In this document: piece after piece, positions 22,823 through 26,841 of the stretch
Layout of the letters: the number at the start of each line of letters is the position of its first letter
Position numbering within the stretch: position 1 is the first letter of the stretch
From: an uncultured Clostridia bacterium
GTDB lineage: Bacteria; Bacillota; Clostridia; Christensenellales; UBA1242
Direction: 5' to 3'
NCBI GenBank assembly: GCA_934747885.1
Contig: CAKVHE010000002.1
Coordinates: 66,447 to 130,446, forward strand
Length of the DNA stretch: 64,000 nucleotides
Position numbers and translations under genes: made by a program
Notes under the pieces: generated by a model
Told to the model about the DNA's origin: nothing
Database searches by the model: none
The model's input: only the letters and a program-made list of their open reading frames with translations

Positions 22823-23419
22823 ATGCCAAACAAAGTCAAACTAGTAGTAACAATTGTTTCTATTGTTTGCGCCATTTGCGTTATGGCGCTAGGCATTTAC
22901 GCTGTTTTACTTTCGTTTGAAGACGGAGTAACCAACACAGCCAAACTTACCATGGTGCAAGTTGACGGAACTCTTTATTGTTCACGCTATGGCGCTGGTA
23001 GAAGTGATTACCGCAACGAACTTTTTTATGACAAAGAAAACGGCGTGTATCAGCAAACGGTGGACAAAGTTTTGGAAGACACCGACTTTGCAAATTATAG
23101 TTCAACAATAGAATATGTGTTTTATTTTGAACGCGATCAAATTTCGGAAAGCGACACTTGGATAAATTTGGAAAACGTTAGCATCAGTGACCCAACTTAT
23201 TTGTCCGCAACCTATAAATATGCTTATTCGGAAACCGAACCAGACTGGGAAAGCGCAAGCCCAATAACTGGCACCATTATCGCAAGCCGCGAACACCCTT
23301 ATGTTTGGGTGCGTGCGTGTTTGTCCGTTAAAGAATATTTGGCGGAAGAAACGGCAGTAATACACAATGTTGTTTGGAATTTTGAACTTGGTTTTTATGG
23401 AAACATGCAAACCAAATAG
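22823..23419 (+). CDS. small secreted protein of the SipW-signal family (core domain only)
   Basis: 198 aa. The signal peptide is MPNKVKLVVTIVSIVCAICVMALGIYAVLLSFEDG. It shares the family landmarks GTLYCSR, IEYVFYFE and VWVRACL...VWNFELGF. Confidence 0.8.
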   Translation: MPNKVKLVVTIVSIVCAICVMALGIYAVLLSFEDGVTNTAKLTMVQVDGTLYCSRYGAGRSDYRNELFYDKENGVYQQTVDKVLEDTDFANYSSTIEYVFYFERDQISESDTWINLENVSISDPTYLSATYKYAYSETEPDWESASPITGTIIASREHPYVWVRACLSVKEYLAEETAVIHNVVWNFELGFYGNMQTK

Positions 23420-23514
23420 ACCATAAAGGGGCAGGTGGGGACAACTTGCTTTGGCTTCAAGGGGTGCCGAAACCTCTTAGGAGTATATAAAACAAAAAAC
23501 AAAAGGAGAAATTT

Positions 23515-24264
23515 ATGAAAATCAGAACAAAACTAATTGCAACGATTGTATCTATGTGTGCAGCTCTTGCAGTTATGGCAGTTGGCGTTTGGGCAGCAAC
23601 TACTCAATTTACAGTAAATGTTACCAACACCGTTAACTTCGCATTTGAAACTGGTGAATATGTTGTAGCTGCTGAAGCTACTGCAACCAAAAAAGTAGGT
23701 GAGGCTGATAGCGATATTACTGCCGCTTATCCAAGCACCGAATTATTTAATAAAAAAGTTATCGCAGGTGCTTATAATGAAGCAACCGAAGCTCTCGGAA
23801 CCTTCAACACTTGGACAACTAATGCAAAACTTGTAGACGCTACCGCTGGTGCCGCTACAATCACTGAGGATACTACTGAAGCTAAAATTCAATATATCTT
23901 CAAACTAACCCCATCTACTGGCAACTCTTATGCAAACGACATTGTTTTCACATTAACTCAAAACACTGTTCCTGCACCAAAAGGTTTCACCAATACTGTA
24001 GCTGGTGACGGTTTTGCAGCAGTTTATGAAGTATCTACTGATGGTACCAATTACTTTGCAATCACTTCTGGTACTGCATACACCGCAGACTTCGCAAAAG
24101 AAGACTACACTGCAGGTACTCAAACCGAAGTTTATATCCGTTGCACATTAACTTACAAAAACACCAATGGCAAAGCTGTCAAAGTTGACACCGATTGGTC
24201 GTTCAACATTGTATTCAACAACGCTTCTGGCAACGCTGGTACAAGCAACATTCCTAACGCTTAA
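23515..24264 (+). CDS. secreted Ala/Thr-rich protein of the SipW-signal family (TasA-like candidate fibre subunit)
   Basis: 249 aa with a strong RBS AAAGGAGAAAT. The signal peptide is MKIRTKLIATIVSMCAALAVMAVGVWAATTQF. The C-terminus reads VYIRCTL...DTDWSFNIVF. Codon choice (GCT, ACT, GGT, TTC, AAC) looks biased toward high expression. Confidence 0.85.
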   Translation: MKIRTKLIATIVSMCAALAVMAVGVWAATTQFTVNVTNTVNFAFETGEYVVAAEATATKKVGEADSDITAAYPSTELFNKKVIAGAYNEATEALGTFNTWTTNAKLVDATAGAATITEDTTEAKIQYIFKLTPSTGNSYANDIVFTLTQNTVPAPKGFTNTVAGDGFAAVYEVSTDGTNYFAITSGTAYTADFAKEDYTAGTQTEVYIRCTLTYKNTNGKAVKVDTDWSFNIVFNNASGNAGTSNIPNA

Positions 24265-24287
24265 TTGTTAGTAAATTTTTAAATTTT

Positions 24288-24344
24288 ATTCTTATAAGTC
24301 CCGCTAGCAGTTCGGCCTGCTAGTGGGCAGGAATAAATTTTTTG
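24288..24344 (+). terminator. intrinsic terminator (compound hairpin followed by a T-run)
   Basis: The inner stem is CCCGCTAGCAG-TTCGGC-CTGCTAGTGGG. TTATTC/GAATAA forms an outer stem. TTTTTT follows at 24339-24344. Confidence 0.65.
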
Positions 24345-24552
24345 GGCTTTTTAAAACACGGGGGAAAGTGCACTCTTTTGGGGTGCATAAAAGTGGTTAT
24401 ATATCCACAAATTAAGTAAGCAACTTGTTTTGAAAACTTTTGCTTTAAATTTTTTCGCGCGCGAGCGCGCACACACGTATATACGCGTAAGAGTAAAAGT
24501 TTTGAAAAGAATTTGCAAAAGCAAATTACACAAGGAAAAATAAAAGGAACAA

Positions 24553-26841
24553 ATGAGCAAGGTTAAGGTCAAAGATCAAACATCTAGCGCTTGGCTACGT
24601 TTTTTAGACACTGCTACCAACATCATAATCATTCCGATTTTGGTGTTGTCGGTAGTGTGTTCTTTGATTATGATCAATGCAAAAAAACAAAACAACGTTC
24701 CTAACATTTTTGGTTATTCGCTGGTTACCGTACTTTCCGAAAGTATGGAAAAAAGTGGCTTTGAGGTTGACGACACCGTTGTGGTAAAAAGGGTAGATAC
24801 CTCCGACATTGCAATTGGTGATGTAATTGCCTATTATAAGTTTGTGGACACAGATGTTTCGTCAGCAGTGCTAGAACAGCAGTACAAACAAAATATGCTG
24901 GCAGAAAGCATAATTAGCGAAAAAGAAATTACGGGCACGGCACTTTCTGAGGCTACCGCCGAAGAAAAACGCATAGCCGAAGCCTACTACAATTCGTCTA
25001 TCGCACCTTCTTACTCCCGCGTGGACAGTTGGAAACTTGAACTTACAAAACTATTTTCAAAATTTGCATTTACGCCAAGTGAGGCGTATGCAAGGGCAAT
25101 AAAAGTAAATTCGCCAATCATCTTCCACCAAGTTGTACAAATTGTAGATTACAACGGTTCGAGATGGTTTAGAACGTGGGGTACAACCAACGTTAACAAG
25201 GCAACCGGCGTCCCAGACTATGACAGTTACTGGATAAATGAAGATTACGTGGTTGGTAAATACGTAAACACCGGCAAAGCTGTGCGAAGCTTTTTGGCCT
25301 TTTCTTCCACCAACATGGGTATTGTTTGGATGGTTGAAGTCCCAAGTGGATTACACCTGATTTTATCTACGCTAGAACTCATCGAAATCATTGACATAAT
25401 GAACAAGATGAAGCAAGAGCAGATAAAAAATGGTACCTACATAAACCGAAAAGAATATAAGCGAATGCTTAGAGAAAAGCGTAAGCTTATGAAGTCGGAA
25501 AACATTGATCAGAGTACGATTAAACGGCGTGAAGCGCCTTATGATAATTTTGCCGTAACCAAACAAACGGCAAGAGAGGCGAACTTGAACGCTACTACCA
25601 ATGGACCGCCAGACGAGGTGCCTGCAGATGAGATTGCATGGCGAAACGGCAAAGGACAGTCTAGTGACAGCCAATTAGGCGCTTACAAGCACGGGGCAAG
25701 TAATCGCGATGGCCCACCAGTTAGAGATAAAGGTGGGGGCGACGAAGACTACGGCAAAAAAATGATTGTAACGCTGAACCAAGGTGAACGAGTCAAGAAC
25801 GAACGCGAAACGGCCGAACAGATTAAAAAACTGAACGACATAAAAGCAGCGCTCGCACTGGCAACCGAAAGTCCACCTGCCGAACATCAAGAACTCAAAA
25901 AAGGCGAAGTTAAACTAACCGCAGATGAGATAAAGAAACTTAAAGATCGTTATGAATGGATTGATATGACATTTGTATCAGACGCGGAAATAACGAACAA
26001 GGGCTTACTTCCATCTCCATCTAAAAAGAACAAAATTTACTTAATAGACAACAAGACCAATCGTGAATATTCAGTTAACGAACTAGGCATTGTCCATAGC
26101 GTCGGTTCAGGTTTGGTACACACAAATACTGGTGTTTATGTTGCGTCTATTGGCGAAGACGGTGTTGATTTTGAAAAAATAGAAATTGACCCATCCTACG
26201 ATTTAATATCGGCCAAACAAGATGCGTTCGGAAACATTTACATAGGTATTGTAGGTGGCCCAACCGAAGAACAAATAGTAACCACCAAGAGTGGCAAACG
26301 AATTAGTTTCTGGAACCGTAATGCACTGCTCGCTTTGGGCGACGACAGACGACTATACTTCTTGGCAATGGACGGCAACTACGACCTAGCAAAAGGTAAA
26401 GTAAAATCGCTAAATGTTTTAAATAACAAGGGCAAACTGGTTGGTATAAAACTGGATAAAAAACGTAAAGTAGTTTTTGAAGATAGCTTTAAAAAGTACG
26501 GTTTTGTAAGCCTGATTGGTAACAAATTGTTCCTAGAAGGCGGCAATAGGTTATATGACCTTGAACAGAACTTGTATGTTACAGTGCCACAAGACGTTTA
26601 TTTGCTAGATGACAACTGCTTCGTGCAACTCTCAAAAAACAAAACGCTACAAAAAATTGACGCGAACGCTTTTGTAAAAGCACTAGCCGAAGGCAAAACC
26701 TTTGACGAAGCCGAACCAAAAGAAACGATCGCTACCGAAGTTTCAAACTTTGATGTAAAAGACAACACTTTGCTAATGTACAAAAGCAAAGAGTCAGGCA
26801 AAAAAGTTGTAATAACGTTGGCGCCGGCGCGCAAAGCGTAG
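24553..26841 (+). CDS. SipW-like (ER/archaeal-type, S26B) signal peptidase I fused to a ~430-aa C-terminal extension
   Basis: 762 aa. An N-terminal TM helix is followed by VLSESMEKSGFEVDDTVVVKRV..IGDVIAYYKF (Ser box), IIFHQVV (His box), FRTWGTTNVN...DYD..W...YVVGKY, and a second TM helix. A long Lys/Glu-rich and repeat-like tail follows. Confidence 0.7.
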   Translation: MSKVKVKDQTSSAWLRFLDTATNIIIIPILVLSVVCSLIMINAKKQNNVPNIFGYSLVTVLSESMEKSGFEVDDTVVVKRVDTSDIAIGDVIAYYKFVDTDVSSAVLEQQYKQNMLAESIISEKEITGTALSEATAEEKRIAEAYYNSSIAPSYSRVDSWKLELTKLFSKFAFTPSEAYARAIKVNSPIIFHQVVQIVDYNGSRWFRTWGTTNVNKATGVPDYDSYWINEDYVVGKYVNTGKAVRSFLAFSSTNMGIVWMVEVPSGLHLILSTLELIEIIDIMNKMKQEQIKNGTYINRKEYKRMLREKRKLMKSENIDQSTIKRREAPYDNFAVTKQTAREANLNATTNGPPDEVPADEIAWRNGKGQSSDSQLGAYKHGASNRDGPPVRDKGGGDEDYGKKMIVTLNQGERVKNERETAEQIKKLNDIKAALALATESPPAEHQELKKGEVKLTADEIKKLKDRYEWIDMTFVSDAEITNKGLLPSPSKKNKIYLIDNKTNREYSVNELGIVHSVGSGLVHTNTGVYVASIGEDGVDFEKIEIDPSYDLISAKQDAFGNIYIGIVGGPTEEQIVTTKSGKRISFWNRNALLALGDDRRLYFLAMDGNYDLAKGKVKSLNVLNNKGKLVGIKLDKKRKVVFEDSFKKYGFVSLIGNKLFLEGGNRLYDLEQNLYVTVPQDVYLLDDNCFVQLSKNKTLQKIDANAFVKALAEGKTFDEAEPKETIATEVSNFDVKDNTLLMYKSKESGKKVVITLAPARKA

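Follow-up and report, generated by a model that had tools for sequence, protein, structure and literature searches.

A SipW-like signal peptidase gene beside members of a previously undescribed family of putative substrates in an uncultured gut Clostridia bacterium

We analysed a 64,000-nt stretch of DNA (the window; C2:66447-130446) from the three-contig, 1.06-Mb genome of an uncultured gut Clostridia bacterium, which is 97.5% complete with 0.04% contamination. The window holds a forward-strand cassette of three genes: gene A (22823-23419), encoding a 198-residue protein, gene B (23515-24264), encoding a 249-residue protein, and a gene for a 762-residue SipW-like signal peptidase (24553-26841), whose start lies 288 nt beyond the gene B stop. 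All three open reading frames had been picked out in an earlier reading of the bare sequence (hereafter the original prediction), and all three are present. On the same strand, three dispersed genes termed large paralogues 1, 2 and 3 encode proteins of 531 (3613-5208), 652 (39351-41309) and 525 residues (45280-46857) that open with the same N-terminus and core as the products of genes A and B. We read these genes as probably belonging to a dedicated signal peptidase and substrate system of the SipW kind, formed around a substrate family that had not been described before.

The N-terminus and the core of about 200 residues that the original prediction had assigned to all five proteins were confirmed. 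The 222-residue N-terminal regions of the large paralogues are 80-86% identical in pairwise comparison. The gene A protein, a minor family member, remains significantly similar to them even when its first 32 residues are removed (E about 1e-6). By BLAST, the gene B protein matches the paralogues significantly only via the ~45 residues at its start (E = 0.18 once these are removed); the family profile does recognise it, and I.Y.F, Y.Y, V(Y/F)(I/V)(K/R) and DW.F.(L/I).F are retained as landmarks. The family had been counted as five members, a figure that proved to be an artefact of the window. BLAST and profile searches found 29 members in the genome, from 198 to 4852 residues long and together occupying 63.7 kb (6.0% of the genome), and a motif scan of the whole genome located the special N-terminus on all 29 as well as on one 858-residue DUF6273 protein that has this signal without the core.

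Behind the core, the large paralogues carry varied cargo on one N-terminal module, as had been proposed. The assignment of DUF6273 (PF19789) to paralogues 1 and 3 is firm (70.6 and 71.0 bits against a gathering score of 23.5; E = 1.9e-19 and 1.4e-19), whereas that of Hint to paralogue 2, in which a middle region separates the core from the Hint-like C-terminus, is weak (3.9e-4, under threshold). Three Hint-cargo proteins elsewhere in the genome have ordinary AXA-type signals, and special and ordinary signals are found on the same types of cargo. The first ~65 positions of the family profile also stand alone on large proteins in other genera. Since the N-terminus is found without the core both in this genome and in other genera, it appears to be a separable targeting module. 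One genome from another genus of the taxonomic family (G121) encodes 16 large proteins (565-1238 residues) that are headed by the ~65-residue family N-terminus and lack the rest of the core (for example at C3:17048-17239, C20:3584-3775 and C16:18989-19177); this set looks like an independent expansion that uses the signal module only.

An exhaustive profile search of 1.84 billion protein representatives returned 296 relatives of the family, all without a name. Their lower tier constitutes a wider family of ~190-230-residue Clostridial proteins without annotation, here called A4, which is homologous to the family core over its full length by hhalign (99.4%, E = 3e-21). The A4 proteins match NF053819 weakly, over residues 1-44 only and below its cut-off. 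Judged from sequence, the substrate family is new, having neither a Pfam nor an NCBIfam model. In all four A4 contexts inspected, a ~200-residue A4 gene is followed by a convergent gene for a ~580-640-residue coiled-coil protein with weak HmpF/tropomyosin-like matches (L010:6827-8731, L011:6095-8020, L012:6752-8620 and L013:6721-8454), and an unusually long non-coding gap of ~900-1300 nt lies upstream of the A4 gene.

The shared signal consists of a basic n-region followed by K-L-[IV]-x-T-I-x-S-M-x-x-A-[LI]-x-L-x-A-V-G-V-(W/Y/F/M)-A↓, the arrow marking the putative cleavage site. The gene B protein begins MKIRTKLIATIVSMCAALAVMAVGVWA↓ATTQFTVNVTNTVNF and reads MAVGVWA↓AT around the site. In the gene A protein the hydrophobic segment extends beyond it (..ALGIYA↓VLLSF), and the same is seen in gene A orthologues. 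Among 27 diverse family sequences, every one has Gly at P4, 25 have Val or Ile at P3, and P1 is occupied by Ala 25 times and by Ser twice; P2 holds a bulky residue (Y, W, M, V, F or L) and P1' a small one. The putative site leads into an alternating strand, F-x-V-x-I-x-N-x-L, with Asn at P11' in 25 of the 27. TasA is cleaved at VGGGTWA↓AF, where Trp at P2 and Phe at P2' make a poor substrate for LepB (PMC10269814). In nine Clostridial TasA-family proteins drawn from PF12389-positive genomes, we found Gly at P5, Thr at P3, a bulky P2 and Ala at P1, then (W/Y/F)-F-T-D, Asn at P11' and Phe at P13'; the family agrees with them at P5-P1, at P11' (Asn) and at P13' (hydrophobic). The SipW-dependent signal pattern that had been claimed has a partial counterpart in this likeness of GV(bulky)A↓ to GTWA↓; the signal does not reach the cut-off of the corresponding model, TIGR04088 (see below).

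Conservation is concentrated at this N-terminus. In gene B orthologues the N-terminal 42 residues are 77.8% identical and the remainder 21.8%, and A4 displays the same contrast (58.5% versus 18.5%); gene A orthologues have no such difference between N-terminus and body. We know of no ordinary signal peptides conserved to this degree. The strong N-terminal identity therefore suggests specific recognition, a function for the first mature strand, or both.

Two other routes to the surface were considered and rejected. A type IV pilin or archaellin-type (class III) signal would have a G/A-then-hydrophobic site before the h-region, which is absent here, the basic n-region continuing into K-L-I-A; the lack of a prepilin peptidase in the locus neighbourhood also counts against it. 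Sortase substrates were ruled out in that the family proteins have neither a C-terminal LPXTG motif nor a C-terminal transmembrane (TM) segment.

The product of the third gene had been taken for a SipW-type signal peptidase, and our analysis bears this out in the form of a divergent enzyme of the archaeal and endoplasmic reticulum (ER) type. Residues 1-296 (24553-25440), which comprise TM1, the Ser box, an insertion, the His box and TM2, match TIGR02228 (archaeal/ER-type signal peptidase I, MEROPS S26B) with 46.3 bits and NF046067 (SipW equivalog) with 46.1 bits. The full protein scores 42.9 bits on TIGR02228 (cut-off 51.85), and scores on NF046067 range from 41.9 to 46.1 bits (cut-off 190). 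Both models are matched in two stretches that stand in order and cover both model halves, and the protein is about four times the length of the TIGR02228 model. The Ser box LS(E/G/D)SM (LSESM here) and the His box (I/T)FH(Q/E)(V/I)V (FHQVV here) are kept in all 14 aligned homologues, in all full-length homologues (35 in number, 37-52% identical and all without annotation) and in the sister enzymes described below; a Ser-His dyad is typical of ER-type enzymes (PMC10269814). The insertion between the two boxes measures ~85 residues here and varies between 70 and 90 residues in the homologues. TWGTTN stands where SipW and Sec11 have TKGDxN, the lineage showing TKG[TVS]xN, TWGTSN or TWGTTN. Downstream of this altered GDxN box, D224 (P.YD.YW) is nearly invariant and could substitute for the second Asp, and the second hydrophobic segment, TM2, is invariant (MVEVPSG.HLILS.LEL.EI.D).

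Short sister enzymes (218-347 residues) in other genera of the same taxonomic family have the same boxes, including TKG[TVS]xN, and four of them exceed the TIGR02228 cut-off with 55.3-70.8 bits. Because these enzymes share the boxes and pass TIGR02228, the 762-residue protein appears to belong to a genuine S26B clade as a divergent enzyme with an extension; going by its sequence, it is SipW-like in type yet no SipW orthologue. The genome encodes exactly one LepB-type enzyme (105.9 bits) besides this one SipW-like protein. Tandem SipW-like genes of unequal length (about 330-460 residues) occur in several genera of the same family (G134:C13:35434-37474, G143:C2:29911-31662, G146:C13:15954-18018, G157:C4:100292-102552 and G159:C10:7145-9172), which suggests that the peptidase has been duplicating and gaining C-terminal extensions in the lineage. 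One orthologue, on a 1.02-Mb scaffold (L002:6001-8577), matches its database protein only if TGA is read as Trp; since the sole in-frame TGA sits 5 codons from the end, recoding is less likely than a gene-calling choice.

The C-terminal extension of the peptidase (25441-26841; ~470 residues), conserved in the 35 full-length homologues, consists of a basic juxtamembrane stretch, a Pro/Gly-rich linker and a conserved, beta-rich domain of ~330 residues. In an AlphaFold2 (AF2) model of the whole protein, the predicted local distance difference test score (pLDDT) is 52.3 overall, 25-68 in the catalytic domain and 75-88 in the C-terminal part. The Foldseek matches of this model are weak and are all beta-propellers, and weak sequence matches to WD40 and Pfam WDR3 propellers agree with them. 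The ~330-residue domain is probably a beta-propeller, and by the positive-inside rule the extension is predicted to be cytoplasmic.

The peptidase gene keeps its neighbours across related genomes. In all nine related loci for which upstream sequence was available (L001-L009; three metagenome contigs and six GTDB species representatives, all from uncultured gut Clostridia), Polysacc_deac_2 is followed by gene A, gene B and the peptidase gene, in that sequence. To look further afield, we used 61 genomes from 58 genera of the window's taxonomic family, with genome sizes of 0.7-1.6 Mb. A clear SipW-like gene was found in 20 of them and the core family in 13; all 13 core-positive genomes have the SipW-like gene, and the core is missing from every one of the 41 SipW-negative genomes (Fisher p = 1.2e-8, or 1.1e-7 without the window's own genus, neither value being corrected for phylogeny). 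A family gene lies no more than about 1.1 kb from the peptidase gene on the same strand in 7 of 11 genomes from other genera and no more than 6 kb away in 2 further genomes; in a genome of the same genus (G144), the distance is about 2.1 kb. In distant genera, the cassette pairs a short SipW-like gene with genes for 1-4 small proteins whose N-termini follow the pattern ...V(W/Y/F)A↓A.(S/T)Q...(I/V).N.(I/V), and this adjacency recurs in at least 7 other genera despite far-diverged sequences. At the level of the order (121 genomes), the A4 type was detected in four genomes, all of them among the 15 with a SipW-like gene (4/4 versus 0/106; p = 1.6e-4), and adjacency at this level was seen in 2 of 3 genomes, with the A4 gene directly upstream of the peptidase gene in two. 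None of the 147 peptidase-negative genomes contained the family. That the peptidase is functionally tied to the family is well supported by this conserved synteny and strict co-occurrence.

The conserved upstream neighbour is a divergent polysaccharide deacetylase gene of the Polysacc_deac_2 family (21814-22614, forward strand; Pfam PF04748, E = 4.5e-62), which is closed by a terminator-like hairpin (22650-22684). Downstream of the peptidase gene, a UppP/BacA gene and a Wzy_C-Bac_transf fusion occupy 26884-29884; since both also flank the cassette in L001 and L002, the cassette lies in a conserved cell-envelope glycan neighbourhood. In two relatives, a two-gene AbiL abortive-infection cassette (AbiLi E = 1.8e-75, AbiLii E = 9.8e-21) sits between gene B and the peptidase gene (L005:2375-4299 and L006:2436-4360), and in a third it lies just downstream of the peptidase gene (L009:7798-9691). 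The locus seems to attract insertions of defence genes.

Expression signals were examined across the cassette. Upstream of gene A lies a sigma-70-like promoter, TTGCCA-17-TATAAT (22750-22778, forward strand), which agrees with the consensus at 11 of 12 positions and is a consensus match only. Gene B has the ribosome-binding site AAAGGAG 7 nt 5' of its ATG. A self-consistent codon adaptation index, which puts the genes for ribosomal proteins, EF-Tu, EF-Ts and EF-G at the top, places gene B 23rd among 778 genes, between rpoB and rpoC; gene A ranks 109th, the large paralogues 216th to 409th and the peptidase gene 543rd. The strong ribosome-binding site and the codon usage of a highly expressed gene that the original prediction had ascribed to gene B were both recovered, and by these signals gene B looks highly expressed. 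Its strong terminator was recovered in part: an 11-bp hairpin 3' of the gene (24300-24327, forward strand), terminator-like or attenuating, is stable (dG -22 kcal/mol, z = -2.57), but the T-run is offset from it. No promoter-like site was found in the 288-nt gap between gene B and the peptidase gene, nor in the part of it between the hairpin and the peptidase gene. Given the stable hairpin after gene B and the gap without a promoter-like site, the peptidase is probably made by attenuated read-through. In the sipW-bsaA operon, a terminator after the structural gene allows read-through (PMC7395162). Past the gene B hairpin and before the peptidase start, the AT-rich gap contains a GC-rich tract of alternating purines and pyrimidines (24456-24488; CGCGCGCGAGCGCGCACACACGTATATACGCG), which may be an operator or influence read-through.

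A dedicated system of this kind would work as follows. The signal carriers are genes A and B, the three paralogues in the window and about 25 genes elsewhere, most of which also bear the ~190-residue beta-sandwich core. Their precursors would leave via Sec and would be cleaved after G-V-bulky-A by the SipW-like enzyme, not by the single housekeeping LepB-type peptidase, the bulky P2 being as in the LepB-poor TasA site. Cleavage would bare the conserved alternating strand F-x-V-x-I-x-N-x-L at the new N-terminus. The gene B protein, translated at a high level, would be the major extracellular or surface structural subunit and may have a fibre or matrix role. The gene A protein would be a minor partner, a candidate anchoring or accessory component; because its hydrophobic segment runs beyond the putative site, it may stay anchored. 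The large paralogues would use the same N-terminal module as a handle by which DUF6273, Hint and giant adhesin-like cargo reach the same surface destination. If the mature proteins polymerise, they may do so as fibres formed by strand exchange, a step that we regard as doubtful.

The original prediction had gone further and placed the family in the TasA/camelysin class. On that reading, the core would be a very diverged TasA/camelysin jelly roll, the gene B protein would form donor-strand fibres with the gene A protein in the role of TapA, and the paralogues would be fibre-borne adhesins. Searches with PF12389 (Peptidase_M73) gave no match at E <= 1 in the five window proteins and none at E <= 10 in a six-frame search of the genome, whereas the B. 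subtilis genome, used as a control, gave a match. The family profile matched no PDB sequence at E <= 10. A bridge through A4 was tried, and A4 was likewise negative for PF12389 and TasA. Profile-profile comparison of the family with the nine Clostridial TasA-family proteins gave an hhalign probability of just 52.6% (E = 1.4e-4) over the first 40 columns, with the body unaligned throughout, and comparison of A4 with the same nine gave 36% over 27 columns. The register is sensible across the signal and early mature region, where P1 Ala is matched, TLTN stands opposite WFTD and IANQL opposite IENQF, so that the Asn at P11' and the hydrophobic P13' fall together. The proposed likeness of the core-end motif DW.F.L.F to the C-terminal strand of TasA found no statistical support by hhalign.

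The comparison of folds, which had been suggested as a check, gave a similar outcome. AF2 modelled the core (paralogue 1, residues 1-235) confidently (pLDDT 88.2, predicted template modelling score 0.78) as a helix at residues 4-31 followed by a beta-sandwich. Foldseek found no close match to this model among PDB and viral structures, every template modelling score (TM-score) being 0.42 or lower, and TasA (5OF1) was outside the top 50 matches. The top matches, although weak, are all donor-strand fibre subunits, namely FimA, FimG and the TasA-like archaeal AbpA. The chaperone-usher pilin 5LP9 heads the list (E = 3.4e-4, TM-scores 0.30 and 0.40), and AbpA (7UEG), at rank 8, is the best structural match from the TasA superfamily (E = 4.5e-3, prob 0.91, TM-scores 0.28 and 0.34). 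The other suggested check, a search with the TIGR04088 and Peptidase_M73 models, was also negative (13.3 bits against a cut-off of 19, and no PF12389 match). Membership of TasA/camelysin was rejected on Pfam, NCBIfam, genome-wide hidden Markov model (HMM), PDB-sequence, profile-profile and fold tests alike. The operon content, which parallels tapA-sipW-tasA and sipW-bsaA (PMC9245690, PMC7395162), the apparently high expression of gene B, the first mature strand that is far more conserved than the body and the donor-strand character of the weak structural matches speak for the TasA reading; against the negative searches, we consider it unlikely. Of the interpretation first put forward, the type of peptidase, its link to the family, the variety of cargo and the apparently high expression of gene B are supported, and the homology to TasA/camelysin is not.

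A more far-reaching reading can also be drawn. The ~190-residue core could be a new pilin-like module that assembles by exchanging the strand bared by the SipW-like enzyme, with the gene B protein as the shaft and the gene A protein as the nucleator or anchor of a new Gram-positive surface fibre, ~25 phase-variable paralogues as plug-in adhesin or effector subunits, and the cytoplasmic propeller coupling processing to assembly or regulation. We offer this as an unlikely, speculative extension; if true, it would add a third route to monoderm fibres besides sortase pili and TasA, one occupying 6% of a 1-Mb genome.

A less probable alternative, which we rate as decidedly unlikely, is that the N-terminal helix is not cleaved and serves as a type II membrane anchor conserved for helix-helix contacts, the SipW-like protein being an assembly factor or scaffold or processing only a subset such as the gene B protein. 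The sole hydrophobic segment of the family proteins is N-terminal, with no C-terminal anchor or wall-binding motif; the helix is at least 21 residues long and is continuous through the putative site in the AF2 model; gene A orthologues stay hydrophobic beyond that site; no ordinary signal peptide is as conserved as this N-terminus; and the peptidase combines an unusual, predicted cytoplasmic extension with an altered GDxN box. An anchor has no need, however, of the Ala at P1 (25/27), the Val or Ile at P3 and the invariant Gly at P4 that stand at the helix end and suit cleavage. The catalytic Ser and His are kept across homologues about 40% identical and in the short sister enzymes, and the site resembles the proven TasA site.

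A chance neighbourhood, in which ordinary Sec proteins are cut by the LepB-type peptidase, the SipW-like gene beside them serves other substrates and the common N-terminus reflects recent paralogy or gene conversion, is very improbable. In its favour, V-x-A↓ fits type I sites in general, a LepB-type enzyme is encoded in the genome, and the large paralogues are recent duplicates (70-90% identical) whose shared signal is therefore partly inherited. Against it, the adjacency repeats in at least 7 other, far-diverged genera, the family is found in 0/41 and 0/106 genomes without a SipW-like gene, and the signals keep an identity of 58-78% next to bodies at about 20%.

A dedicated system around the SipW-like enzyme thus remains the reading that we favour, and several observations weigh against it. 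At the site itself, P2'-P4' is L-T-N or T-T-Q in the family versus F-T-D in the TasA class, and V-x-A is also compatible with an ordinary type I peptidase. The best TIGR04088 match in the genome, on the N-terminus of a family member, reaches 13.3 bits (E = 0.15) against the cut-off of 19, and there was no match among the five window proteins and 31 A4 members. The peptidase scores slightly too low for TIGR02228, its whole lineage has another residue in place of the first GDxN Asp, and its model is poor (pLDDT 52), the catalytic domain included. The core family was undetected in 7 of the 20 SipW-like-positive genomes, A4 members often lack a peptidase gene as direct neighbour, and the co-occurrence statistics ignore phylogeny.

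To our knowledge, SipW-type peptidases have had one job, the maturation of TasA-class matrix fibres in Bacillus and of BsaA in C. perfringens. Like tapA-sipW-tasA of B. subtilis, the window locus has a gene for an ER/archaeal-type Ser-His peptidase beside genes for putative major and minor secreted beta-rich proteins with a special signal; the two sites agree in having a small residue at P4/P5, a beta-branched one at P3, a bulky one at P2 and an Ala as P1 (GTWA↓A in TasA, GVWA↓A in the gene B protein), and in both systems the structural gene seems strong and the enzyme weak in expression. The window locus differs from that operon in its gene order (A, B, peptidase), in putative substrates that neither HMM nor profile-profile nor fold comparison assigns to Peptidase_M73/TasA, in a signal that fails TIGR04088 and lacks F-x-D at P2'-P4', in a peptidase with an ~85-residue insertion, a ~470-residue C-terminal extension and no GDxN Asp, and in the recurrence of signal and core, combined with cargo domains, across about 30 genes. 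The resemblance to the tapA-sipW-tasA arrangement that had been pointed out is sound as to operon content, and gene order and substrate family depart from it.

Other systems offer narrower parallels. BsaA of C. perfringens is a ~23-kDa beta-rich secreted protein that needs SipW for export and forms filamentous polymers (PMC7395162). Its operon, sipW-bsaABC, resembles the window locus in being Clostridial, in the hairpin or terminator after the structural gene and in its small secreted accessory proteins (PMC7395162); it differs in that sipW comes first, that polymers here are putative, and that we found no sequence link between the families. The archaeal bundling pili AbpA/AbpB (7UEG) are likewise a remote family whose link to TasA escapes ordinary searches. 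AbpA reaches 97% HHpred probability to PF12389 and has no dedicated peptidase nearby, whereas the family studied here reaches 53% over the signal region only and has the SipW-like peptidase gene adjacent. The chaperone-usher pilins FimA and FimG are immunoglobulin-like donor-strand subunits, and the adhesin FimH joins a pilin module to cargo much as the family joins core to cargo; here there is no chaperone or usher, the host is a member of the Clostridia, the TM-scores are low (0.30 and 0.40), and nothing indicates homology. With TIGR02228 S26B enzymes, the window peptidase shares the Ser box, the His box, the two-TM layout and the match to both model halves in order; in contrast to them it is split by an insertion, scores below the cut-off, has TWGTTN for TKGDxN and is about four times longer.

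The principle of a dedicated S26B peptidase with cognate matrix proteins is already known. What is new is the substrate family, the signal variant, the deployment of a portable module across about 30 genes of a 1-Mb genome and the architecture of the peptidase; the same logic, an ER-type peptidase beside its clients, would here act on a client family left undescribed in databases. G-V-(bulky)-A↓ followed by the conserved strand provides a testable definition of a new SipW-cognate signal, and hundreds of gut-metagenome entries labelled "hypothetical proteins" would be given names through the family. The unusual build of the peptidase, with its lost GDxN Asp, insertion and propeller-like extension, may connect processing with regulation. 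For the organism, an uncultured gut Clostridia lineage with a reduced genome that devotes 6% of its coding capacity to the family, the system would offer an explanation for the joint routing of about 30 surface proteins with DUF6273, Hint and giant adhesin cargo.

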